Assembly: GCA_010015585.1 (NCBI GenBank)
Contig: ML975160.1
Length of the DNA stretch: 64,000 bases
Origin: Eremomyces bilateralis CBS 781.70
Taxonomy: Eukaryota
Strand: one strand, 5' to 3'
The notes below the pieces were generated by a model that made no database searches, was not told the origin of the DNA, and saw nothing but the letters and a program-made list of their open reading frames with translations. Both the position numbers and the translations under genes were made by a program. Below are positions 10,458 through 32,249 of the stretch, piece after piece (position 1 is the first letter of the stretch; every line of letters begins with the position of its first letter).

Positions 10458-12290
10458 CTACTTCATGCCAATACACTCCTTCGGCCACTCGAGCCATTTA
10501 TTCCATTTTCCCCCATCGGCATGCTCAACCATTTCACATATTGACAGCACGAGATCTCTGCCAATACCTTCGAACATCCAAACCTCGTCAAGCCGATAGA
10601 GCAGCATCGCATAGTGTGCCATCAAAATAAGTGCCGGCATTTGCTGCGTCTCCAACAAGTCTACGTACGCTTCTGGTAATGAAAACAACCACATGAAGAC
10701 GACAGACATGATCGGGACTTTGGGAGCAAATTTGGGGTCTTTGGTTTTCGGGGCCGGGTGACTGAGGCGGGCGAAGGTGATTCGTAGCTCCATGAGCGCT
10801 CGATTGTAGGTCAGGATTTCCGCTTCTCGGTCTACCAGTCTTTCGGGGGATATCATCCACGTAAAAGGTGAGATTCCGCGTGAAGGGTCTAATCTGTTCT
10901 CAACGGATATCGTCCCGACCGGTCTTAAGATCCCAGAGCCAAGGGTCGGCGATTCGTGATGATTCCCATAACCGTCGGGTTCAGAGACCGTTACTGACAA
11001 TGGGGAACTGTCAGACAATGCTTCGGTGCCCTCGTATGATGTGGTCCCGGTTTTCGGAACTGCCACCAAATGACTCAAGCGATTCTCAATGGTTAGCTGC
11101 TCTGGTTGGCGACGAGTTTCTCCTTCTTGTCGCCATAAATCTTCCAGTTCGCTAAGCCGGCGGTCCCATTCAATCGCCTTATCTGTTTCTGGTCGAGCGG
11201 TTGTGGTCCAGGTACGTGCATTCACGTATAAAAAGTCCTTCAAAGGCCCTTGAGCGATCCAAGGGATCGCGGGATGTATTACAAGCCTGGCACCACGCAC
11301 AAGGCGAATCCATTCGGGTTGCGCTACGAGACTCGATGGTTGTATTCGTGCTGATGCATCTGGTCCAAATTGTGGCGAAGTTTGGAACGTACCCTGGGTT
11401 TGGGCTGATTGCCCGGGGGAGCTAGGAGTGAGCGGAGACCTATTTCTTAGATCGGCCTGCGTATTCGCATGGAAAATACCACCCTCCTTCCTTGGGACAG
11501 CGAAGACCTGACAGATAAGTAAGAGAGAGAAGGCGAATAGCGCATGGCAATTCGCGATTGTGATAGACTCCATGTTCACCCGGTAGAGGCTAAGAGCCTG
11601 GCCTTGCCAATGGGCCGCAGCTTTGTACAGCTCGTCTCTTCCAGAAAGATCGTTCTTTTGCGTCTTCACATGAGCGATATGAAGTGCCGAGACCGCCAAT
11701 AACCCGTTTAAAAGGAAGTCGTGTTTCAGGGCGATAATCGGGATCTCGAACTGCCAGAGCTTTTGCAGCGGTATCTGGTCGGTGATGGTTTGAGAGGTGA
11801 AGTGTGAGAAGTGGTGGAAAAGATGTAAATCGTCCCGGCTAAATGCATCGTATGCTTTGGCAAACATAATACCTTGTGGACCCAAAATCGGCGGTGGTGA
11901 ACAGGAGGATGTGTCCAGTGTCGGCCTCCGCCTTGTCAACGCTCGTGATTGACTTCTTGAAGCGGCTGAAGAAGGGGGGACTGGCTGGTAGGCACAGTCT
12001 AGTCCCATTTTCGTGCAATTTAAACAGCATGGTTTCGTTTCATCGCACTAAATTGGTTCTATTAGTAGAAGAACAAAGGTTGATGATAGTAGCAATAATG
12101 AGCAAAGACAAGGTCAAAGGGAACAGATGCAAAGTATGACATCGTGGATTACAGAGCAAGACAATATCGATGGGTTTAAGCAGGCAGGACATGTACTGCT
12201 TCATGAGATCGCATTCCATACCTTGATCCTTCGTCGCTTGCACGTCACGCATCCCGTGCGTGTCTTCTGGTGTGGTTTTCGTGGGTACAT
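10458..12290 (-). CDS. Zn(II)2Cys6 transcription factor, Upc2/sterol-uptake-control-like family
   Basis: Exon 1 MYPRKPHQKTRTGCVTCKRRRIK (12290-12222), intron 12048-12221, then CDETKPCCLNCTKMGLDCAY. Also DLHLFHHF, FLLNGLLAVSALH, PALILMAHYAMLL and a terminal WLEWP. About 552 aa. Confidence 0.9.
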
Positions 12291-22064: not shown

Positions 22065-23044
22065 GACTGAATTGGTTGACCACACTTCACAAGGGACTTC
22101 GGATGGGAATATCAAGGAGCTGGTTCCTTCGTCACCGTCTGATCTCCCGTTTCACAGATCACTGACAGATGAAATATCAATTCAAATCCCTTGGCGACAC
22201 CGGAGTGGACAAGAGCAAGAGATAAGCATTTGTAAATCCAGCGGCAAGCGGGGTGCCAGTGCGGCCGTAATATTACTACTCACTTGGGTCCCGTGGTAGT
22301 GGGGGGGGCGTCGGTGGTTACCTCTTTGGTCGTAGTGGTGCGTTTTAGTTTCCGCGACGATGACACTTGCTGCAGGATGAGCAGATGAAGTCTAGGATGA
22401 GCTTCACGGCAATTGACTGTTGACAAGCGCCGGTTTTGCAAGCGCCGGTTAGCAAGCACCGTGGAGGTGTGTACAATCCATCCAACACCTCCGCGGGGCA
22501 GTCCAGCACTCACCGTTGAATATAGATGCTATTGTAATGAGTCATCCGATACGGAGTACCTACCTTATTCTCTCAAATCTCCAATGCGTGAACCAATTAT
22601 TCGAAGAAGTGAAATGGTCTCCTCCGGCCATCCGTTTCTTCTGCTCTAGGAGTCCGGATGATGTCGCTCTCTAAATTCTGAAATGTCATGTTCATCAAAA
22701 GCAAACGCCTTTCTCTTTTCTTACTAGTAGTTATATATTACTCAGAACTCATCAGAAGTCAGAGCCCATTTCCTATCAACTAATTTCACAATCACTGCTC
22801 AAAAATTCATCACACGTATACCGTTGTTCCTGCAGTAGACTTTCCTAATATAGTTGCCGACTTTTCATCCATTCTGCAATTCCGCTCAGGTCTATTCTCT
22901 ACTAGTCTAAGACAGCACTCCTGCTTTGTGGCCAACCCACATTGTGGTAACCACATCAGGACCAATCCGTAGAGAGAAGAAGTAGATTTAATGAATTCAG
23001 TCAATTCAACCACACTGTCTATTGTTCTGAAATTCCTCCGCTAA

Positions 23045-23935
23045 ATCCAAGAAGGTATACAAGCGTATGGAAATAGTGAAAGCCATTCTATTCGTAAATG
23101 CGCGGAAGAATACGGCGTGGGCTACTCTGCCCTTCAGGCCCGTCTACAAAAGGACCGAGAATCCCACCACGATGCAGCTAAGAAGCTCCTAAAATTGTCA
23201 CCTTTTATAGAAACAATACCTAGTTCAATAGATTACGGAAGAAGATCAATATGCGAGGGCTCCTTCGCATCAAAGAGTGTGCGAAATGGCTCGAACAATT
23301 GCTCGAGAAAATGAAGACGAGACCCCCTGCGGAAAGAATTGGATCGACGGCTTTCTTCGACGAAATCATAGTATCAAATCTATGGTAGGAAACTCTATCG
23401 AAGCCTCCCGCATAAGTGCACCCTCGAAAGAGATCATTTTGGATTAGTTAGGCTTCTTCGCCGCCTCATTGACTTCCACTCCATCAAGGCGTCAAATATA
23501 TGGAATTTCGACGAGCATGGAATCACCCTTGGTTGTGGCACGACCAGGCCTATATTGGCCCCTATTCAAAAGAAAAATAGAAAGAAAACCTACGTCAAAC
23601 CCCCTGATGATCGCGAGTGGGTGTCTATCATCGAAGCTATTTCTGCTGGCGGCCACTCGATTTCTCCCCTTGTGATCTTTAAGGGTAAAAGCTTGCAAAA
23701 TACTTGGTTTCCACGCCAAAATTGGCCTAAGTGGCACTATACATGCTCTGAGAATGCATGGACTTCGAATGAGATCGGCATTGAATGGCTTCGACGCAAA
23801 TTTCTCCCCGAATCGAAGCCACTGATTTCGACAGATTGGCGTCTCCTAATTTGTGACGGGCACGGTTCCCACGCTACTACTGATATTATGACGCTCTGTA
23901 AAGACAATAGGGTCATCCTCTTATATCTCCCTGCA
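23045..23935 (+). pseudogene. Fot1-like DDE transposase, 5' part, with frameshifts and stops
   Basis: HTH remnants (SIRKCAEEYGVGYSALQARL; CGKNWIDGFLRRN), IWNFDEHG, REWVSIIEAISAGG..PLVIFKGK and WRLLICDGHGSH. Breaks at LLYLPA, where HSSHxLQPLD would normally follow. Confidence 0.9.
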
Positions 23936-24084
23936 AACAGGCGTTACACAGGCAGAGACCATTTTGGTCGGGGGGCGACTGTAGAAGAGTATAGTACAGA
24001 TGGTACTGCTCGGAAATCTGTGGCAGGAGTCTGGATAGGCAGACTGGTGAAACCTGCTATTGTATACAAACACAATATAATGTC
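23933..24084 (+). repeat. 152-bp direct repeat, copy 1
   Basis: Aligns ungapped to 25143-25294 with about 15 mismatches by hand count (~90% identity). Confidence 0.95.
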
Positions 24085-24163
24085 CTGCCAACTGCACGCG
24101 TCCACGTCGCCGCGGGTGGAAACATTGATGGGGAAGAGTTCTCTATCGATGGCTAAGTGCAGT
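24052..24163 (+). ncRNA. HDV-like (CPEB3-type) self-cleaving ribozyme
   Basis: P1 ACCTGC(T) 24052-58 / CGCGGGT 24111-17; P2 ACTGCAC 24091-97 / GTGCAGT 24157-63; P3 GCG/CGC around loop TCCACGT; P1.1 CC/GG (24118-19); 13-bp P4 24123-35 / 24139-51; J4/2 GCTAA with putative catalytic C24153. Confidence 0.8.
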
Positions 24164-25142
24164 GGCGATGAAAGAGACGCACGCGTTACGCGTGCAGGTC
24201 GCAAGCGTTGAGCGTGGTATCGCCATACCACCAACACCAGCACGACCGTGTTTACTGCCTCCGCTTAGACACGGTGTCCTTTCATCAAGGGAGGCCTCTT
24301 GAGGGATAAAAATGGGAGATGAAAACCATCCGATAGGGGTCTATCCAGCTCGCAGCTGGATCCGGAAGCCTGACTTATTATCAGGTGGATGAGGACGCGT
24401 CCTAGGCCCCTAACAGGACACCCTCAGGCTCGCCTACTCTGGGGTTACGCGTGAGCAACGAGCTGCGTGTAGCGAGGGTTTGGAACAATCCTAATTCTAA
24501 AGAACTTGTTAAGGCTAACTTGGATAAACCTAGGTGAACTCTGTTAAGGCCGGAGGGCCTCTTCGCAACGGGAGCGCTTGTTAAGGCCCCTCTATCGGAA
24601 CCTGTTAATACCATAACGACACGAGCTTACGTACCGGGCGCGACAAGCACGACAGCTTACCGAACTGGAGTTACAGGCCAGTCGATAGAGGAGAAACACA
24701 GGTATGCTCCTGGTGGAGGCTTGATGGAGACACAGACCCGTCGCGTGGATCTATACAATGGGAGAATCACGGGCCAACTTAAGATGATGGAGGACACGAG
24801 CTTGGTTAGTGGGATAAGGCTGCTTGCGTTGCCCGGCGCGGAACGCATGCGTACTGCCTTATCCTGCAAGACACGGTCGGCCCATCAGAGGGAGACCCCT
24901 ATGGGCAACGCGAAACGGCTACTGTTTACAGTAGTCGCGGGGCGTAGTGCGTGGTAGCCACTGCTGGCTCCAAGGACCTCGTCCCGTCAATGGGCTCTGA
25001 CCCTTGGTGAATCTGAAAGCAGGCGGGATCAAACCCGGCCGGAGAGACTACCACGTGGCTCGAGAGAACGGATGCGCGTGTCGGTATACAGAGAGACAGG
25101 ACCAGTCGCTAGGCTGGAACGCTGGTGATGTATGCTTAAGGA

Positions 25143-25294
25143 GCAAACAGGCGTTACACAGGCAGAGACCCTTTTGGTTCGGGGGCGACTGTGGACAAGC
25201 TAAGTGCAGATGGCACAGCTCAGAAAACTGTGGCAGGAGTCTGGATAGGCAGACTGGTGAAACCTGCGATTGTATACAAACACAATATAATGTC
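25143..25294 (+). repeat. 152-bp direct repeat, copy 2, truncated by the LINE junction
   Basis: See copy 1. Carries ACCTGCG (25262-68), a full 7-bp partner (one G.U) for the ribozyme P1 3' strand. Confidence 0.95.
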
Positions 25295-26580
25295 GTGTCC
25301 CTCTCATGGAAGGACCATATCCTCCGGGCAATACAGAGGGGACTTAAGGCCTTCGACTCCCTGGCGAGGGTAACTTCATCGGTATGGGGACCATCCGTCC
25401 GGAAATCGAGGCTGCTCTACACAGCGGTTGCACGGCCCATTATGACATACGGCGCCCCTATTTGGGGAGTCTGTCAGCAGGGTGAGCCAATCTCTGAAGG
25501 CAAAATGAAGGACCTAGCCAAGGTTCAGAACAAGTGTCTACGAAAGATCCTAGGGGCTTACAAACGGACACCAATCGCCGCACTTGAGAGAGAGGCGGAC
25601 GTTCCCCCAATCGAACTCTACGTCCAAGAACGGGCCGCCCAAAGAGCAGCATCGACGAACACCCACCAGGTCACTACCCAGATTGAGGGAGCCCTGACGC
25701 AAGTCTGGGATGCTGCTTCTGCTCCCCCGAGACGAACTCGAGGCCGACCCCGCCGTATCCGGTCTAAACCTGAACCCGCGATGTGTACGCTTCGGACCCA
25801 GTATGACAGACTTCTGTTCCCCCGGCCCGAACCAATTAGAGGATATCAGACACAACAGCGAAAAGGCCCGTACCGGATGATCCAGGACGAGTATCGAGCG
25901 AAATGGAGGGAGAGATGGCAAGCCGAAGCGGCCAGAACAGGAAGGAGAGCAAGGACATGGAAGGACCCGTGGGAAACCCAGTGCCTTAACCGGTACGACG
26001 GCCTTCAGAAACACGAGGCCTCGGCGCTCATGGCACTACGGACTGAGGTAGTTGGAGTTAAAGGATGGCTCGCGAAACTTGGTGTCCCTGGAATCTACCC
26101 AGCGTGTGAGTGCGGTGCCCCCCGACAGTCTCTCTACCACCTCCTTGCATTTTGCCCGCAGCGGACCGACCAGAGGATCGCGCTCCTCCAACGTGCTGGA
26201 ACAACGGACTTTAAGAGGATATTGCATGACAGGGACAAGGTGCGCCACGCAGCAAGGTGGCTGATCAATGCGGGAGGCCTAGAGCAATACCGGGTGGCCA
26301 AGGAAGTTGAGGAGGAGGTAATAGAGGACTGGAAACCGTTCCAGCTCCTCCACGACGTGCCAGAATAAGCTCTCCGCGTAGGCGGAAACACCAACTCGTA
26401 CGGATAGATGATAAATGTTTGAGATAGTCTACTAAAGGGAGGAGGCGGGATTTTATATACCCGCAGCCTCAGGGCTACGGGGAAACTTTTGCCCGCGGCA
26501 GACCAGATAGAATGCCGTGCTCATAGACCCGAAAGGGATCCAGATAGTACGATAAATTGATTCTTATTATTATTATTAAT
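25295..26580 (+). mobile_element. 5'-truncated non-LTR retrotransposon (Tad1-like LINE), 3' end
   Basis: Open frame from LSWKDHI (RT thumb), then LLYTAVARPIMTYGAPIW, VQNKCLRKILGAYKRTP..ALEREADVPPI and CCHC finger CECGAPRQSLYHLLAFC. Stop at 26368, ~190-bp 3' UTR and (TTA)5 tail at 26564-26578. Confidence 0.92.
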
Positions 26581-26925
26581 ACGCCTAAAGGCCCCAAGGA
26601 TATCTATATCCAAAAATTTGGCGGAATGTCGGCGCAGGATTTCAGGGGGTTTCAGGGGAAACTGGCCAAGTCACCTTCGGAGAAGCATGCCGAAATAGCA
26701 GCGCTCAAATCCGAAGTTGCGAGGCATTCAAAAACAGTGGAAGATCTAGGCGGAGCTACTAAGAAAAGAAAACGAGTCCAAGTTGATCAAAATGGGCGAT
26801 TTGTCTCAATTGATCAAATTGTTGCGGCTTAGGAGGCGGCCAAACAAGCGGACTGACAGCTGTTCAAAGGAAGGTCACTTTTAACGCGGAAGAAACATCT
26901 CGACAATTTCAAGAGGCAGATTTCA
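26581..26925 (+). pseudogene. Fot1-like transposase, C-terminal remnant
   Basis: TPKGPKDIY..EIAALKSEV..KKRKRVQVDQNGRFVSIDQIVAA*, typical of Fot1/Pot2 C-termini; lies just inside the right TIR. Confidence 0.8.
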
Positions 26926-27779
26926 TGTCTCTTTGCTCACAATTACAATTATATATCTAGATAAATTATCGTTGTTGAGATACTGTCTGGAATCTACAGC
27001 TATACGATCTGTTTTCCACTGTTTTGGGCATTCTGGTGGAGTGACCACACTGTAGGTTGGCCACAAAGCAGCTGAGGGGTGCTGTCTTATCCATGTATCT
27101 GGATATCCATACGCCAATGACACCACTGATGACAAAGTCCGCCTCCTTGAGTTAGTTATTATGTTCTTAGTTTCGTTGCATCTGTCACATATAGTAGTTA
27201 GACAACACCACATTATACTTCCCTTGCTTTATAAGTTTTATACTTTGTGATATGTCCCGAGATCATATAGTTGCTGCAGCCGAATAAGTATAGAGGGCGT
27301 TCGACGTCACTGGAGTAATAAAGGGAGTGTCCCCTCTAGCTGTGCAACCGTGCCAATGACTGTAGAATAGTGAGTTATGGGAGAAGAAGTAGGGCACAGG
27401 ATATCTCGGGATGGCGGAGAGTGGGTGGGGAGCGCATAACTTCGGAAGAGAGCATGTGAAGGATCATGGGAGTTCCATTTAAGGTGTAATTTTGATCAGT
27501 GGACAAACAGTTGCTGAAAAGGATATTTTCGCTTCGCAGTAGAAAGTAAGAAATATAATTAAGTCGTGATATTATAGAACTAGCATAGTATAGAGTATGG
27601 GATACAAAATATGGATAGCGGCTGGGGAAAATGTGAATGGCAATCCAACAACACCGTGGATCATGCCCAATTTCGTACAGAATATTGATAGACCCATAGA
27701 GGGAGGAAAATCTCCGCTAAACTCGCTAGATCTTGAATTGAAAGCCAAAATCGGAATCATCAACAGTTCGCACACTGTA

Positions 27780-30700
27780 TCAATCATCGTCCGAGCTCGT
27801 GGTGTCGCTATCCTCGTCCTTTGGGCGGCTATCCCTCCAACTGGGGGGCTTGCTCCGCCCACCTCTGGGTGCTTCCCGTCTCGCAGCGCTGCCGCCACTG
27901 AACGTTGCCGGCTCCTCATCATCTTCATCCCTGGCATCATCAAACCGTCGTGGTCTCCCATATCCGCTGCGCGGCCCGTGAGATGCACCGGCGATTGTCA
28001 TCCCGGGGTTTGGCCTCGAGTCACGGTAATCCATACGGATCTGGTTCGTGCGTGCTCGAGCAGACTCATCTTTCCCACCGAAGAGGTCTGTGATGTATTG
28101 ATCGAAGCCTTCAGCGACCTTTGCAACTTTCTCGAAATGCTTTTTTCGCAGGATAAGTCGCTTTTCTTTGCCTTCGGTGGCATTCGAGTTTTTCAAATTA
28201 CGTGACTGGTCTGAACGACTATCCCATTCTGCAAGAGCGACTGCCGTCTCGAATGCATTTTGAATTTGCCTGAGTAGAAAGGATTAGCGAGATATTCCAC
28301 ACTGAGAATGTAAATGTTGTAGGTCTGGGGGGCGGAGGGGACGAAAGCGGGGGGCAAAGGGAGAGTCATGGATTGATAAAACTGACCTCCCGTTCCACTG
28401 CCGTCGCTTCTCTGAACTTGCAATATAATGTTGCTCGGCCCAATCAAGGATCTCGTTTGTTTTAACCTTGGGTTTCGAACCCGATTTCGTCTTGCGACCC
28501 TCAAAGCCCCTGACTACACGATCCAGACGATTTTGGTAGATTTGCATAGTGGTATCAAGGTCAAGCGGCTTGTACTCGAGAGTCACATGAATTCTGGACT
28601 TGAAGCCTGCGTCGATGTCTCCAACCCGATTTGTAGTCAAGAACAAGATTCCCTGGCAAAAAAATGTCAGTAAGTAGGCCTAGGACCCACGGAAACGCGG
28701 ACTGACATTGTAGTACTCAAGCTGCCGAAGGAAAACTGTTTGGACTGATCAGCAGAACTCCTTGCGTTGCTTTGGGTCCCCTTACCTGATACGATGGCAT
28801 TAATATTGATTTGGTTCGCAACCCGCCGTTGCAAGAAGACGTCCGCTTCGTCGAGCAGAAGAACACATCCCCACTTGTCAGCAAGGCTGAAATGCCACCT
28901 CAGATTGTCCTCCACCTTCTCTGGAGACGTGCCCAGGTTGCCGGAGGTCAAAGAATATAGTGGTTTTCCGACTCGCGCCGTGATGCATTCCACGGTACTC
29001 GTCTTTCCTATCCCAGGGGGGCCGTGCAATAGGAAAACCAAACCCCTTCCTTTGGACGATATGAAATCACCGAACGTGCTGTCAGCGCCCCGGCCACCAT
29101 TGACTGCTTCTTCGCGGGCCAAATGTTGACGGACGAGGGCCTCCACAGTCTCTTTGTGATCCGCAGGAAGGACAAGGTCATCCCAGGGGTCGTATGCGGT
29201 TGGGCTTTGCAAGTTCTTTTCCGAGGTGCTAATAATCGCCCATTTCCTTGTGACCAAAAGATAAGCATAGACACGATCAGGAAGCAAAATAGCATCCTCA
29301 TCGCCGTCGATCTCCTTCCGCGGTTCGAACAAATGCTTGTTCGGTCGCAAAAAATTCCGCTCGTTCGCCAGGTCCACGGAGAAGTCGTTCTCGACTGGAT
29401 CACCCGTGCAGCAGTTGGCGTAACGGCAGAACCGATTGTCGCTGTACATTTCAGCCCACTCTCGATTATCTTTGGGCTGTTAGCGCTAATTAGGTTATTA
29501 GGGTAAAGGGCACGTACCGTGATCGATGAGGTCCAAGTCCGGGTTCAACTTGATCGGCTCCCAATCCTCTTTCTGCTCAAAGGCCTCTTTGAAGTCAATG
29601 ATGACTTCGGAGTTGATCTGCTCGCCACGCGCATCTTCGTCTAGATTTGGGCCGGCATACCGTCTATGGGTCGTCTTCTTGCTAGCAACGTCCATGAAAA
29701 CTCGTCCTCGGCCCTCAAGTTGATTGCGAAGCGCCGCCCGCTTGGAATCGAAATGCAACGGATACACGGCAAGATCGGTAACTTTCCGTTCCCCTTCATA
29801 TCGCTGAATGCCAAATGTCTTTCCCTGGGGAATGTAGACTTCGCCGTCAAATGTGAGTGACCAGCATTGAACTGCGAACGCCCCATACCAATTACCAGGA
29901 CCAAGGGAGTTGGATGGAGGGTTTTTAGGAGGATCAACGACGCTGTATGTAAGTTCTCGACCGCCAGTATAGGTGAGAACTCGATAGATTGCCAGCGATC
30001 CTTGCTCTTGTCCAGCAGCAACAACCTCTTGTCCAATCTGGAACAGATGCCAAAGATCATCGAAAGCAATCGTCTCCAGACTTCCTTCTTGAATTCGGCC
30101 GCGCAAATCCAAGATACTTTTCAGATCTTGATCCATGAACTGCATGAAGAGCTTCATGTGCTCGTATGCCGTTTGGGAATCGATTGTTTCGTCATCGTCA
30201 TCTCCTACGACATTTGTCTCCGGCCCTCCAGGACTGGTCCGTTTCACCGCCGGCGATCCATCGAACTTTGCTTCGAAGACATCAGTCCTATCAATCGGGG
30301 TCTTCGGCCGTTCATATTTCGCTTCGAGATTGCGGAAAGCCTCCCGTATTTTCTGTTCGTTTGTCACGAAGGTCTTGTAAGGACGCAAAAAGACCAATTT
30401 GCCATGCCTTAGGGCCCAGTTACTGTTGGTCACACTTTTCAAAACGGTCAAGAGAGGTTTCGAGCGGATCCTTAATCTTGGAGGAGGCCTTCCAGATTTC
30501 AACCAGCCAGGAGGCGGGGAATGAAAGTCCATCTCCACCGCCCCTTCTGGCTCGTCCGAGATTTGCACATGTTCATTCGGATTCTGCTTGCTCGTCTGTG
30601 CTCTAACCTTTCCGGGCTCTTCTACCAGGATTTCAAGCACCGATCCAGGTGTCGGATCTGGGCGAAAGTTATGAAATCCCGTCTCATTAGGTAATACGGG

Positions 30701-31246
30701 CGCCGGTTTGGGCTTGAACTCATCCCAACCAAGGTAGCGGCTAGCGACTTCATGAACTGGAGGCTGAAATGACTTTGCGCGCTTAGAAACCGGTTTGTCT
30801 TCGCCGCGGATATTGCGTAGCTCTTTCTCCAAAGCTGACACGCGGCTTTCAAGCCTGGCGGCATATCGTACTGATGCTACCGCTCGTCTCATGACCTGCT
30901 CCTGTTTCGTAGTTGAGTCCTCTTTATAGACACTTAGATAAGCTTGCTCGACATCCGACTCACTTTCTGAGCCGGAGACGTCCGAATCAAGTGCGACTAT
31001 CTTGGACTTCCCTGTTCCCGCTCGTTTGGGTGGACGGTCCTCACCGTCAATGGGATCTTCTGTTTTGGCAGGGGATGGAGGGTCATAGGGAGAGGCTGGA
31101 TGGTATGGCTCTGTACTTTCTCTGACGAACGGTTCATTCTGTTCCAACGTTGTCGGCGTCGGCGGGATCACAGCCGTAATTGGAGTAACGGCATCCACAG
31201 GAGAACGAGGCTCCTCAGCCTTCTCCGGGCCCAAGACATCGGCCAT
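27780..31246 (-). CDS. Large fungal AAA+ ATPase (~1065 aa; single C-terminal AAA module, long N-terminal domain)
   Basis: Walker A LLHGPPGIGKT, Walker B VLLLDEADVFL, VFLRQLEYYNGILFLTTNR, FKSRIH and WNGRQIQNAF; N-terminal IAFDDLWHLF. Introns 29470-29517, 28736-28785, 28653-28706 and 28270-28386 give a continuous frame. Confidence 0.92.
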
Positions 31247-32249
31247 CTTGACAGGTTTCTGAGATTGCAGCCAAAAGATCTCCTAATCGCATGAGACACC
31301 CTGTGGAGAATGAACGCCTTTGAGCCTAGAGGGTAAAGGAACGAGATATATCAAACAGTAACCACGACAAGATGGAAGCAAATTGATGGGAGAGATGGAG
31401 GTTGGTGGGGGATCCAATTACCAATCCAAAAGCCTAATGCGGCTGAAATGGAAAGATATCGGGATTCAGGAAGCCTGTGTTCATCAACAGGTTGGAGGGA
31501 GACCGTGTGCTCTGATTGTCCAGTGTCCTGTTCATTGCTGGGGTAGCCACACGCCTCGGGGCGAACAGAGCGGCGCGGACCCCTCCACCTAGATTCCCTC
31601 CAATATCAGAGGCCAAGCTGCTAAAATGGTACAACTTGGAGCTCGCCCCACCGACTGGCATCGATTATTTTGAGGACCATTCAAACTCCGAGTAACCGTA
31701 GTGGCATGAAAGGTTGTCTCAGCCGTAGAGCACGGCTTGCAGCACCCATTTCCGACATTCTGCCGCCTGCCGGTGATATCTTAGGCTTCGAGGGCGATTG
31801 ATGAGGGACGGCGTTGAGGCAATGTAGCCCGTCCGGGTCGGGGCAGCGCGCAGAAACCCGCGATAATCCTCAAAGCTCAAAGCTGGTACACTGGTATGGT
31901 CGGAATGTTCCCGACGCAGCGGATTGGAGTGCAGCATCTCCAGCTGAAGGCTTGGATTTTGGTCTTTTCGGAGCGTTGGGGTGGTGTCGGAGGTTAGCCT
32001 TGTCAACTGGGGCCAATTATGACCCTGTCGTGCCCTGGTGACTATGTACTGCGGTCGTAGTAGTGCCGAGCGGTCAAAAAACGCTCTAATAATTAGCGGA
32101 GGATCTAGCCTTGCTCAACATCGTGCTACTCGCAGGTTTCCCGACGACCTCCGACATCCTCAGCCTCAATCGAACTTTCAAATCGTCCCGATTGCTGTAG
32201 ATCAAGAAGTGACGGCATCCGCCCGACAATGTGAGATAAAATCTCGAGA

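Follow-up and report, generated by a model that had tools for sequence, protein, structure and literature searches.

Chimeras in which a LINE is joined to a long noncoding RNA by template switching have been described in fungi, as far as literature searches show, only for the MINE elements of Magnaporthe. In MINE, a full-length copy of the 1.1-kb noncoding RNA WEIRD is joined to 5'-truncated MGL LINEs, with 28 different fusion sites; the chimeras are flanked by repeats of 10-20 bp, a tripartite WEIRD-MgSINE-MGL chimera has been explained by two template switches, and WEIRD had no known function in the 2007 paper (PMC2104539). The reverse transcriptase of R2 is described as jumping in vivo to U12 and to tRNA (PMC3414825). 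HDV-like ribozymes are documented at the 5' ends of LINEs, as are nonautonomous derivatives that combine the ribozyme with the LINE 3' end (PMC3414825; L1Tc/NARTc), and for fungi 230 variant and 11 canonical HDV ribozymes are reported with "widely variable gene associations" (PMC5640933).

The locus studied here lies in a window of 64 kb, by which we mean the whole stretch of DNA that was analyzed. We propose that the segment from 23933 to about 26580 is probably one composite retro-insertion into a pogo/Fot1-like transposon, made by the reverse transcriptase (RT) of a Tad-like LINE with two template jumps. The composite is probably not a circular-RNA retrozyme and resembles known chimeric retroelements. 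Its features, with the evidence for each in parentheses, are as follows.

22910-27087, + strand: pogo/Fot1-like DNA transposon, the host element (inverted repeats, blastn, both ends read, DDE_1 and HTH_psq matches)
23372-23932, + strand: transposase frame (DDE_1), broken at 23932 (PF03184, E 4.5e-21, profile positions 2-108 of 177)
23933-24087, + strand: repeat copy 1, the 155-nt 3' tail of another, diverged unit copy (repeat search, blastn, the family's fixed 3' end)
24088-25297, + strand: near-full-length copy of a noncoding unit of about 1.22 kb, without its first 11 nt (ends of other copies, folding z-scores, no ORF or Pfam match)
25143-25297, + strand: repeat copy 2, the last 155 nt of the full unit (repeat search, blastn)
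25298-26368, + strand: 5'-truncated LINE, the C-terminal 356 codons of ORF2 plus stop (BLASTP, 55% identity, E 2e-126)
26369-26580, + strand: LINE 3' UTR and (ATT)n tail, the tail at 26560-26578; 3' end of the retro-insertion, approximate (TRF, contig ends)

The host transposon has terminal inverted repeats at about 22910-22959 and 27033-27087, is bordered by TA on either side (22908-22909 and 27088-27089), and is internally deleted. The rest of the DDE_1 domain is absent 3' of the insertion, where Pfam gives no DDE_1 match in 26548-26832; the insertion site is a target deletion, the transposon lacking the remainder of its DDE domain. No target-site duplication was found around the whole insertion, the longest word common to the 40 nt before 23933 and to 26556-26640 being 6 nt.

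Homology to LINE ORF2 begins exactly at 25298, which is query residue 100 in the BLASTP alignment, and the alignment of the fragment covers residues 763-1137 of P0001, an endonuclease/RT protein of 1137 amino acids. Upstream of 25298, other copies of this LINE in public sequencing-run contigs read on as normal ORF2 (four contigs in run X1, one in X3, and two in X4), and the sequence 5' of this position translates as LRVLGVWLDP, residues 753-762 of P0001. Among the 25 LINE relatives found, PF00078 and PF14529 occur in most and PF03372 in many as well; Pfam finds nothing in the window's LINE fragment, which retains nothing but sequence C-terminal to the RT domain. A search with the LINE protein against metagenome contigs returned seven loci, all at most 39% identical. 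The 3' end of the LINE is placed from TRF and two contigs: a LINE contig of X4 ends at 26572, and a contig identical to the window resumes from 26542. The unit at 24088-25297 is fused directly, and in the same orientation, to a LINE segment (25298 to ~26580) that reaches the LINE 3' end.

The unit is noncoding. Its longest ATG-initiated ORF has 77 aa and its longest stop-to-stop frame 139 aa, and the two frames scanned with Pfam (139 aa on the + strand and 106 aa on the - strand) gave no match. The 139-aa frame matches one of 44 candidate proteins, an 87-aa call on a 789-nt contig, and does so patchily, as noncoding DNA would. Both halves of the unit fold more stably than shuffled sequence, with minimum free energy (MFE) z-scores of -4.65 for 24088-24690 and -2.21 for 24691-25297 (none of 20 shuffles as stable in either case) versus +0.60 for the adjoining LINE stretch 25298-25900, where 13 of 20 shuffles were as stable. 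We found no tRNA-like head. A telomerase RNA was considered as a candidate identity and dropped, the longest match to a telomere template being 7 nt, found once.

In public sequencing-run contigs the unit is multicopy, linear, and physically linked to a LINE. Its 5' end is fixed: contigs cease to match the window immediately upstream of 24088 or 24090 (four contigs in X1, two in X3, and one in X5), and other copies share ...A GCCCGCGAAGT at the 5' end behind three different flanks. The 3' end is equally constant and is common to five contexts: the window junction 25297|25298, the joint 25297>25758 (one contig in X3), the joint 24087>25818 (one contig each in X1 and X3), the tandem junction 24087|24088, and a solo copy in X5 that stops at 24089, with unrelated sequence beyond. 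The same unit end is therefore joined to three LINE positions, 25298 in the window, 25758 in X3, and 25818 in X1 and X3, the last two joints resting on one contig per run each. Run X1 may be the source sample of the window; it shows no difference from the window's flanks, and it is therefore not independent for this locus. The solo copy lies in a 25-kb contig of X5, from another, related organism, and is linear: it runs through 24090-25178 and then 23971-24089.

The two repeat copies are 155 nt each and start 1210 nt apart. They are identical at 139 of 155 positions, and the 16 differences comprise 7 transitions and 9 transversions (blastn: 153 nt, 90.85%, E 2.8e-54). The adjacent LINE frame is still open over 356 codons, while the repeat copies differ at this many positions. 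A divergence of this size, with transversions exceeding transitions, is easier to reconcile with two source RNAs than with a single circle copied over 1.1 turns. The 1365-nt stretch formed by both repeats and the interior has no further copy within the 64-kb window by blastn, and a 28-nt stretch kept in both repeat copies has no exact match in metagenome contigs or in viral contigs. As far as the sequences tell, members of the unit family do not have the 155-nt segment as a terminal repeat, because the X5 solo copy carries it once, at its 3' end. On several points these results bear out the preliminary description of the locus, which had drawn attention to direct repeats 1210 nt apart around a hairpin-dense interior lacking ORFs and had placed a LINE junction at the end of the second repeat.

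The 5' start of the unit contains a predicted HDV-like ribozyme. HDV-like ribozymes have little sequence in common; their P1 has 6-7 bp, with a G.U wobble first, at the cleavage site, and their J4/2 carries the catalytic C just before the P2 3' strand in a C-N-R-A pattern. The elements of the candidate in the window are the following.

24091-24163, + strand: HDV-like ribozyme core, predicted (targeted pairing test, P1-less descriptor, MFE fold)
24091-24097 with 24157-24163, + strand: P2, 7 bp (pairing test, also in the MFE fold)
24098-24100 with 24108-24110, + strand: P3, 3 bp (pairing test)
24101-24107, + strand: L3, 7 nt (pairing test)
24111-24117, + strand: P1 3' strand (pairs 7/7 with the native P1 motif of other copies)
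24118-24119 (GG) with 24102-24103 (CC), + strand: P1.1, 2 bp (pairing test)
24123-24135 with 24139-24151, + strand: P4, 13 bp (pairing test, also in the MFE fold)
C24153-U-A-A, + strand: J4/2, directly before the P2 3' strand at 24157-24163 (sequence, descriptor)

These pairings follow the nested double-pseudoknot order P1, P2, P3/L3, P1.1, and P4, with the P1 5' strand supplied by other copies only, since it is among the 11 nt that the window copy is missing. The 5'-terminal heptamer of those copies, GCCCGCG, which is known only from 30-letter loose-end consensus strings of public contigs, forms 7 of 7 pairs with 24111-24117, the first of them G.U. The 5' boundary of several genomic copies falls at most one base from the predicted cleavage site, with one common A before G1 in all three flanks, and two variants of other copies, G>A at 24132 and C>T at 24147, leave P4 paired. 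Because the P1 5' strand of the family sits at the 5' tip of the other copies, we take the bounds of the unit to be 24088-25297 plus the 11 missing nucleotides. The window copy is without the native strand; it can form a surrogate P1 of 6 bp with ACCUGC at 24052-24057, which begins with an A-U pair, puts A at +1, and implies a J1/2 of 33 nt. This surrogate exists only because the tail fragment of another copy sits upstream at this locus.

We also assessed the ribozyme by descriptor searches. With P4 included, a P1-less descriptor matches the window once on each strand, where 60 shuffles average 0.82 matches per strand, and the core at 24091-24163 is its only match on the + strand; a looser P1-less version has 26 and 21 matches on the two strands against 24.4 in shuffles. 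An HDV descriptor with a J1/2 of 0-3 nt finds two sites on the + strand and six on the - strand, versus 1.9 per strand on average in 20 shuffles, and misses the core at 24091-24163. A P1-less core is not rare, nor are the matches of the P1-less descriptors significant by themselves, so that the case for the ribozyme rests on its position together with the P1 of the other copies. Rfam gives no family match at the gathering threshold over the window, nor at E values up to 10 in 23000-27500, and hence no hammerhead, HDV, or other ribozyme match. Judged from position and pairing, we suggest that the 5' end of the unit is set by an HDV-like ribozyme in unit positions 1 to 84, which would be self-cleaving.

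The composite could have arisen as follows. Target-primed reverse transcription would start on the LINE RNA; the RT would leave this template at 25298 and go on at the 3' end of a separate unit RNA of ~1.22 kb, copying it up to 11 nt short of its 5' end. From there it would jump to another, diverged unit RNA, entering at the 3' end, and copy 155 nt, after which the cDNA would be joined to the target. The 155-nt repeat at a spacing of 1210 nt would be a by-product of the second jump, and neither an LTR nor 1.1 turns of a circle. We infer this order of jumps, and a unit RNA that would be free in the cell. The unit ribozyme would release that RNA from any upstream co-transcript, and the unit with a LINE 3' part would hold what a nonautonomous retroelement needs: a 5' end that it makes itself and a LINE tail for the RT.

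An origin by internal deletion has to be weighed against this. The unit could be the normal 5' UTR of the LINE family, with a ribozyme at its 5' end, and the composites could be internally deleted LINEs, like the R2 SIDEs and NARTc, mobilized in trans. Precedents exist both for LINEs headed by a ribozyme and for nonautonomous derivatives that keep the ribozyme and the LINE 3' end (PMC3414825), and the G+C content of the unit (0.550) is like that of the LINE (0.553), versus 0.45 for the host transposon. We nevertheless consider this origin unlikely: one identical unit end is found at three LINE break points (25298, 25758, and 25818), at the tandem junction, and in the X5 solo copy, and independent internal deletions should not share a common left edge. 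Furthermore, over the ~15 kb that the X5 contig extends past the unit 3' end, there is no match to the LINE part at ≥80% likeness.

The tandem could instead have formed in DNA, if, once an ordinary unit-LINE chimera was in place, two unit copies had undergone unequal recombination, gene conversion, or repair. The 10% divergence between the repeat copies, such as separate genomic copies would show, agrees with such an event, as does a locus that already has a target deletion and is without a target-site duplication. What makes it improbable is the precision of the joint: the upstream piece ends exactly at the family 3' terminus and the downstream copy begins 11 nt from the 5' terminus. Such end-to-end joining of RNA-sized pieces points to template jumping, whereas homologous recombination would join the copies within shared sequence.

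The preliminary description had favored a retrozyme based on HDV-like ribozymes: terminal repeats with cleavage sites would delimit ~1.1 turns of a 1210-nt monomer (24052-25261), which would circularize and be copied by a LINE RT, possibly as a rolling circle. A ribozyme core is indeed present and the locus is a partial head-to-tail tandem; in a complete tandem, cleavage by the downstream ribozyme would give a unit-length RNA with 5'-OH and cyclic-phosphate ends, which would explain the constant 3' end, and the surrogate P1 at 24052-24057 is a possible pairing. We still regard this origin as very unlikely. The repeat is not a feature of the family, the X5 solo copy being linear with a single segment, and it contains no ribozyme core, which begins at 24091, past the repeat end at 24087. 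The motif GAA/ACCTGC does occur at 24049-24057 and 25259-25267, as described, but it is not the family's cleavage site, the native P1 of other copies being GCCCGCG; likewise, the HDV-like ribozyme persists as a predicted core downstream of the first repeat, while its proposed P1 at 24052 is a surrogate pairing from the tandem junction, with A and not G at +1 and a J1/2 of 33 nt. The supposed second ribozyme, thought to be cut off by the LINE, is actually the 3' end of the unit, the bounds of which are shifted accordingly. The tandem junction is without the native P1 strand, so there is no clean circle junction; 16 of 155 positions differ between the repeat copies, against a single unit copied 1.1 times; the unit is always entered at the same nucleotide, as with the end of a linear RNA; and Rfam, a scan proposed in the preliminary description, is without any ribozyme match. 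All the run sequences used are contigs, where an RNA back-join would look no different from a tandem junction in DNA.

Finally, a miniature LTR-type (TRIM-like) element, with 155-bp LTRs, a 1055-bp interior, and TCCCT as a 5-bp duplication at a pre-existing transposon/LINE junction, would account for the size and repeat layout and for the TCCCT that adjoins 23933 upstream and 25297 downstream, but is highly improbable, because the X5 solo copy has no terminal repeat, the repeat ends are neither TG...CA nor inverted, integration would have to strike exactly the 5 bp joining transposon to LINE, and elsewhere the same unit end joins other LINE positions. The LTR/TRIM and rolling-circle readings were both rejected on the grounds set out for each. 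The TCCCT itself (23928-23932, directly before 23933, and 25298-25302, directly after 25297) is left unexplained by the template-jump model, barring chance or microhomology. For annotation, the locus illustrates that direct repeats around an ORF-less interior beside a LINE can have been left by a double template jump, rather than marking an LTR or a circle.

Among known systems, the composite is most directly compared with MINE. In both, a (near) full-length copy of a noncoding RNA of ~1.1-1.2 kb is set, with matching orientation and no poly(A), on a 5'-truncated LINE that runs to its 3' end; both have several LINE break points, a three-part form explained by two template switches, and an ascomycete host. 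The present host, however, is not Magnaporthe (for a neighboring gene, the closest relatives with a name are at most 65% identical), and the WEIRD primers WEIRD125-forward and WEIRD967-reverse (PMC3978060), the two sequences by which WEIRD was compared, have no match in the window at up to three mismatches. The extra piece is here a second copy of the same RNA, and this locus is without a target-site duplication. Unlike WEIRD, for which no solo copy was found, the unit has one in a related organism (X5), and it starts with a predicted HDV-like ribozyme; the word "ribozyme" is absent from the main text of PMC2104539, and a literature search joining MINE and ribozymes returned nothing on the subject. 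The locus represents a second ascomycete with the MINE architecture, in which the partner begins with a predicted canonical HDV-like ribozyme. This suggests that the partners in such chimeras may be retroelement modules rather than housekeeping RNAs, with a 5' end of their own making and a tail taken from a LINE.

The R2 SIDEs and R2/R1 hybrid SIDEs of Drosophila and NARTc of Trypanosoma share with the composite a 5' HDV-like ribozyme, a LINE 3' end, and the absence of coding capacity, and in these elements, too, the 5' boundary of genomic copies lies at most one base from the predicted cleavage site. These elements are internal deletions that share the 5' end of their LINE, whereas the head described here is 1.2 kb long, has its own constant 3' end, and is joined to varying LINE positions. 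The chimeras of U6 with mammalian L1, and of R2 with U12 or tRNA, offer the same switch of an RT to the 3' end of another RNA, with a full-length partner upstream of a 5'-truncated LINE; there the partner is a known small housekeeping RNA, and here it is long, multicopy, and ribozyme-headed.

With retrozymes and the pseudo-LTRs of Penelope-like elements, the unit has in common that it is noncoding, ribozyme-bearing, and dependent on retroelements, and that a partial head-to-tail tandem mimics terminal repeats. Those systems have hammerheads inside the repeats and circular RNA; here the ribozyme is HDV-like and outside the repeat, and the repeat is peculiar to this locus. As a long shot, the unit family could be a fungal, HDV-ribozyme counterpart of retrozymes, in which each unit would be cut off by the ribozyme of the unit that follows it and the LINE RT would jump onto the resulting RNAs. 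If so, cutting in head-to-tail units or read-through transcripts would explain the invariant 3' end, the products would be RNAs of unit length, bearing 5'-OH and cyclic-phosphate ends, which could be closed into circles by a tRNA-type ligase, and their abundance would be what the LINE RT keeps jumping onto. A milder corollary, if true, is that the WEIRD of Magnaporthe is the same kind of ribozyme-headed module.

The unit also resembles the fungal HDV ribozymes in its HDV-type nested fold, its ascomycete genome, and its dispersed copies (PMC5640933). In the variants described there, the cleavage site has C-G, P4 contains an E-loop, and an additional base separates P2 from P3; the main text of that paper does not contain the word "retrotransposon" (PMC5640933). 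The unit ribozyme fits the canonical HDV pattern, with G.U first, a plain 13-bp P4, and no extra base. Retroelement modules of the kind suggested here would provide a genomic setting for the hundreds of HDV ribozymes reported from fungi (PMC5640933).

A direct repeat of 155 nt (23933-24087 and 25143-25297, spacing 1210 nt) bounds a 1365-nt stretch that has no further resembling sequence anywhere in the 64-kb window (blastn). The repeat copies match at 139 of 155 positions (E = 2.8e-54, blastn), and their 16 differences, seven transitions and nine transversions, are concentrated in 23994-24017. Two blocks near the 3' end of the unit, the ~1.22-kb module at 24088-25297, are identical in both copies (40 nt, 24018-24057; 26 nt, 24059-24084), which hints at a constrained 3'-terminal element. 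The interior contains no ATG ORF longer than 77 aa and gave no Pfam match in either unit frame scanned. Both halves fold more stably than all 20 shuffles (z-score -4.65 for 24088-24690 and -2.21 for 24691-25297), compared with +0.60 and 13 of 20 shuffles equally stable for the adjoining LINE stretch. The preliminary description was thus right about the repeats 1210 nt apart and the ORF-less, hairpin-dense interior. The stretch sits within a DNA transposon, followed by a LINE:

22910-27087: pogo/Fot1-like DNA transposon flanked by TA (22908-27089 including TA), its terminal inverted repeats imperfect and ~50 nt long
From 25298: C-terminal part of LINE ORF2 (last 356 residues), with 55% identity to an endonuclease/RT protein of 1137 aa (residues 763-1137)
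To ~26580, + strand: LINE stop codon, 3' UTR and (ATT)n tail, reading on from ORF2

The LINE alignment begins precisely at 25298, which bears out the LINE junction noted previously. The DDE_1 frame of the transposon ends at 23932 (profile position 108 of 177) and is not resumed downstream of the insertion (Pfam). Minus the retro-insertion, the transposon measures only ~1.5 kb and the second half of its DDE_1 domain is gone; the retro-insertion therefore accompanied or came after an internal deletion. Downstream of the transposon, 28667-31282 on the - strand holds two long open frames (270 aa and 594 aa), the first bearing a P-loop-like GPPGIGKT motif; these look like ordinary host genes with no relation to the unit. 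The best named relatives of a nearby acid-phosphatase gene, at no more than 65% identity, are spread over several Pezizomycotina classes, indicating that the host is a filamentous ascomycete and not Magnaporthe.

Contigs containing the unit from four public sequencing runs were compared over positions 23300-26800 of the window. One of them, X1, is identical to the single-copy flanks of the window and is possibly its own source; its 1956 aligned contig pieces comprise 830 at 99% identity or above, 736 at 95-99%, 348 at 90-95% and 42 below 90%. Many unit positions show alternative letters, each in several X1 contigs, and we conclude that both unit and LINE are multi-copy families. The unit has fixed edges. 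At the 5' edge, contigs from X1 (n = 4), X3 (n = 2) and X5, a run from another organism (n = 1), diverge from the window immediately before 24088 or 24090, sharing the letters ...A GCCCGCGAAGT behind three different flanks. At the 3' edge, the unit end at 24087 (the counterpart of 25297) abuts three different LINE positions: 25818 (one contig each of X1 and X3), 25758 (one X3 contig) and 25298 (the window). A 25-kb X5 contig runs 24090..25178, then 23971..24089, then into unrelated sequence, so that this unit copy is linear, has the 155-nt segment once and lacks this LINE behind it. This solo copy (contig record 23) is complete, with the native ribozyme tip; no obvious target duplication was seen in the 16-30 flanking letters inspected, and the copy may be either a source gene or a solo insertion of some age. 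Given the fixed edges and the linear solo copy, repeat copy 1 represents the 3' tail of a further copy of the unit, placed in front of one without its first 11 nt, and, contrary to the earlier proposal, the repeats are not the terminal repeats of a retrozyme. Other copies in X1 and X3 carry a 93-nt internal deletion (24179-24273), a 38-nt insertion at 24851-24854, or 2- or 4-nt deletions at 24628 (24628-24631), and thus define subfamilies.

The main rival explanation, that the unit is the 5' UTR of this LINE itself, is opposed by the single unit end point common to three different LINE junctions and by the solo copy without LINE. Other LINE copies continue upstream of 25298, where hand translation gives LRVLGVWLDP, residues 753-762 of the endonuclease/RT relative. 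LTR-type integration of the 1365-nt stretch would account for the TCCCT on both sides (23928-23932 and 25298-25302), but conflicts with the solo linear copy and with the repeat's ends, and would have to strike the transposon/LINE junction exactly. In intact LINE copies the bases preceding 25298 end in ...GACCCT, and the pentamer could reflect chance, microhomology during joining, or duplication.

The HDV-like ribozyme had been placed with its cleavage site at 24052. Rfam gave no match, either at the gathering threshold over the window or at E up to 10 in 23000-27500, and an HDV descriptor limited to 0-3 nt between P1 and P2 did not recover the core. In a targeted pairing test of that site, ACCUGC at 24052 was able to pair with 24112-24117, and a complete HDV-type core was found downstream of ACCUGC:

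24091-24097 with 24157-24163, + strand: predicted P2
24098-24100 with 24108-24110, + strand: predicted P3, enclosing a 7-nt L3
24118-24119 (GG) with 24102-24103 (CC), + strand: predicted P1.1
24123-24151, + strand: predicted P4, a 13-bp hairpin
C24153-U-A-A, + strand: immediately 5' of the P2 3' strand

P2 and P4 are also present in the unconstrained MFE fold, and pairing is kept in both P4 variants (24132 G>A and 24147 C>T). The 5'-tip heptamer of other copies forms 7 of 7 pairs with 24111-24117, G.U first, which puts the predicted cleavage site at most one base from the point at which the genomic copies begin; all three flanks retain one common A before G1. The P1-less core is not statistically rare (one descriptor match per strand in the window versus a mean of 0.82 in 60 shuffles), and the ribozyme case lies in its position and the native P1 strand, the latter known from 30-letter consensus strings alone. 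The sole other match, at 12070 on the - strand, is within chance expectation. The predicted core lies at 24091-24163. The site at 24052 (A at +1, 6-bp P1, 33-nt J1/2) arises only through the tandem junction between repeat copy 1 and the unit at this locus. Behind the second repeat there is no core, and hence no second ribozyme truncated by the LINE.

Most simply, the insertion is explained by target-primed reverse transcription that started on a LINE RNA and changed template twice. Having primed at the target, the reverse transcriptase would have left the LINE at position 25298 for the 3' end of a unit RNA and, 11 nt short of the 5' end of that RNA, moved on to the 3' end of another, of which 155 nt would then have been copied. 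Two source RNAs fit both the 10% divergence of the repeat copies, in which transversions outnumber transitions, and the adjoining LINE frame, still open over 356 codons. At odds with template jumping are the lack of a target-site duplication around the whole insertion, the missing part of the transposon and the TCCCT flanking the 1365-nt stretch. A circular RNA from the unit, though possible in principle, is unlikely.

HDV-like ribozymes at retroelement 5' ends and in fungi are already known, with 230 variant and 11 canonical fungal examples (PMC5640933), and SIDEs, which combine a ribozyme with a LINE tail, are known from Drosophila (PMC3414825). LINE template-switch chimeras are likewise established: the R2 reverse transcriptase jumps in vivo onto U12 and tRNA (PMC3414825), and the MINEs of Magnaporthe join a full-length 1.1-kb copy of the non-coding WEIRD RNA to MGL LINEs at 28 distinct sites, and two template switches are invoked for one tripartite chimera (PMC2104539). 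Two WEIRD primers (PMC3978060) have no match in the window at up to three mismatches, so the unit is not the Magnaporthe family itself. Ribozymes go unmentioned in the main text of the MINE paper (PMC2104539), and our literature search found no relevant publication linking MINEs with ribozymes. The window insertion, a non-coding RNA copy plus LINE, has the architecture of the Magnaporthe MINE (PMC2104539); what is new is that, in a second ascomycete, a MINE-type partner RNA is combined with a predicted canonical ribozyme head.
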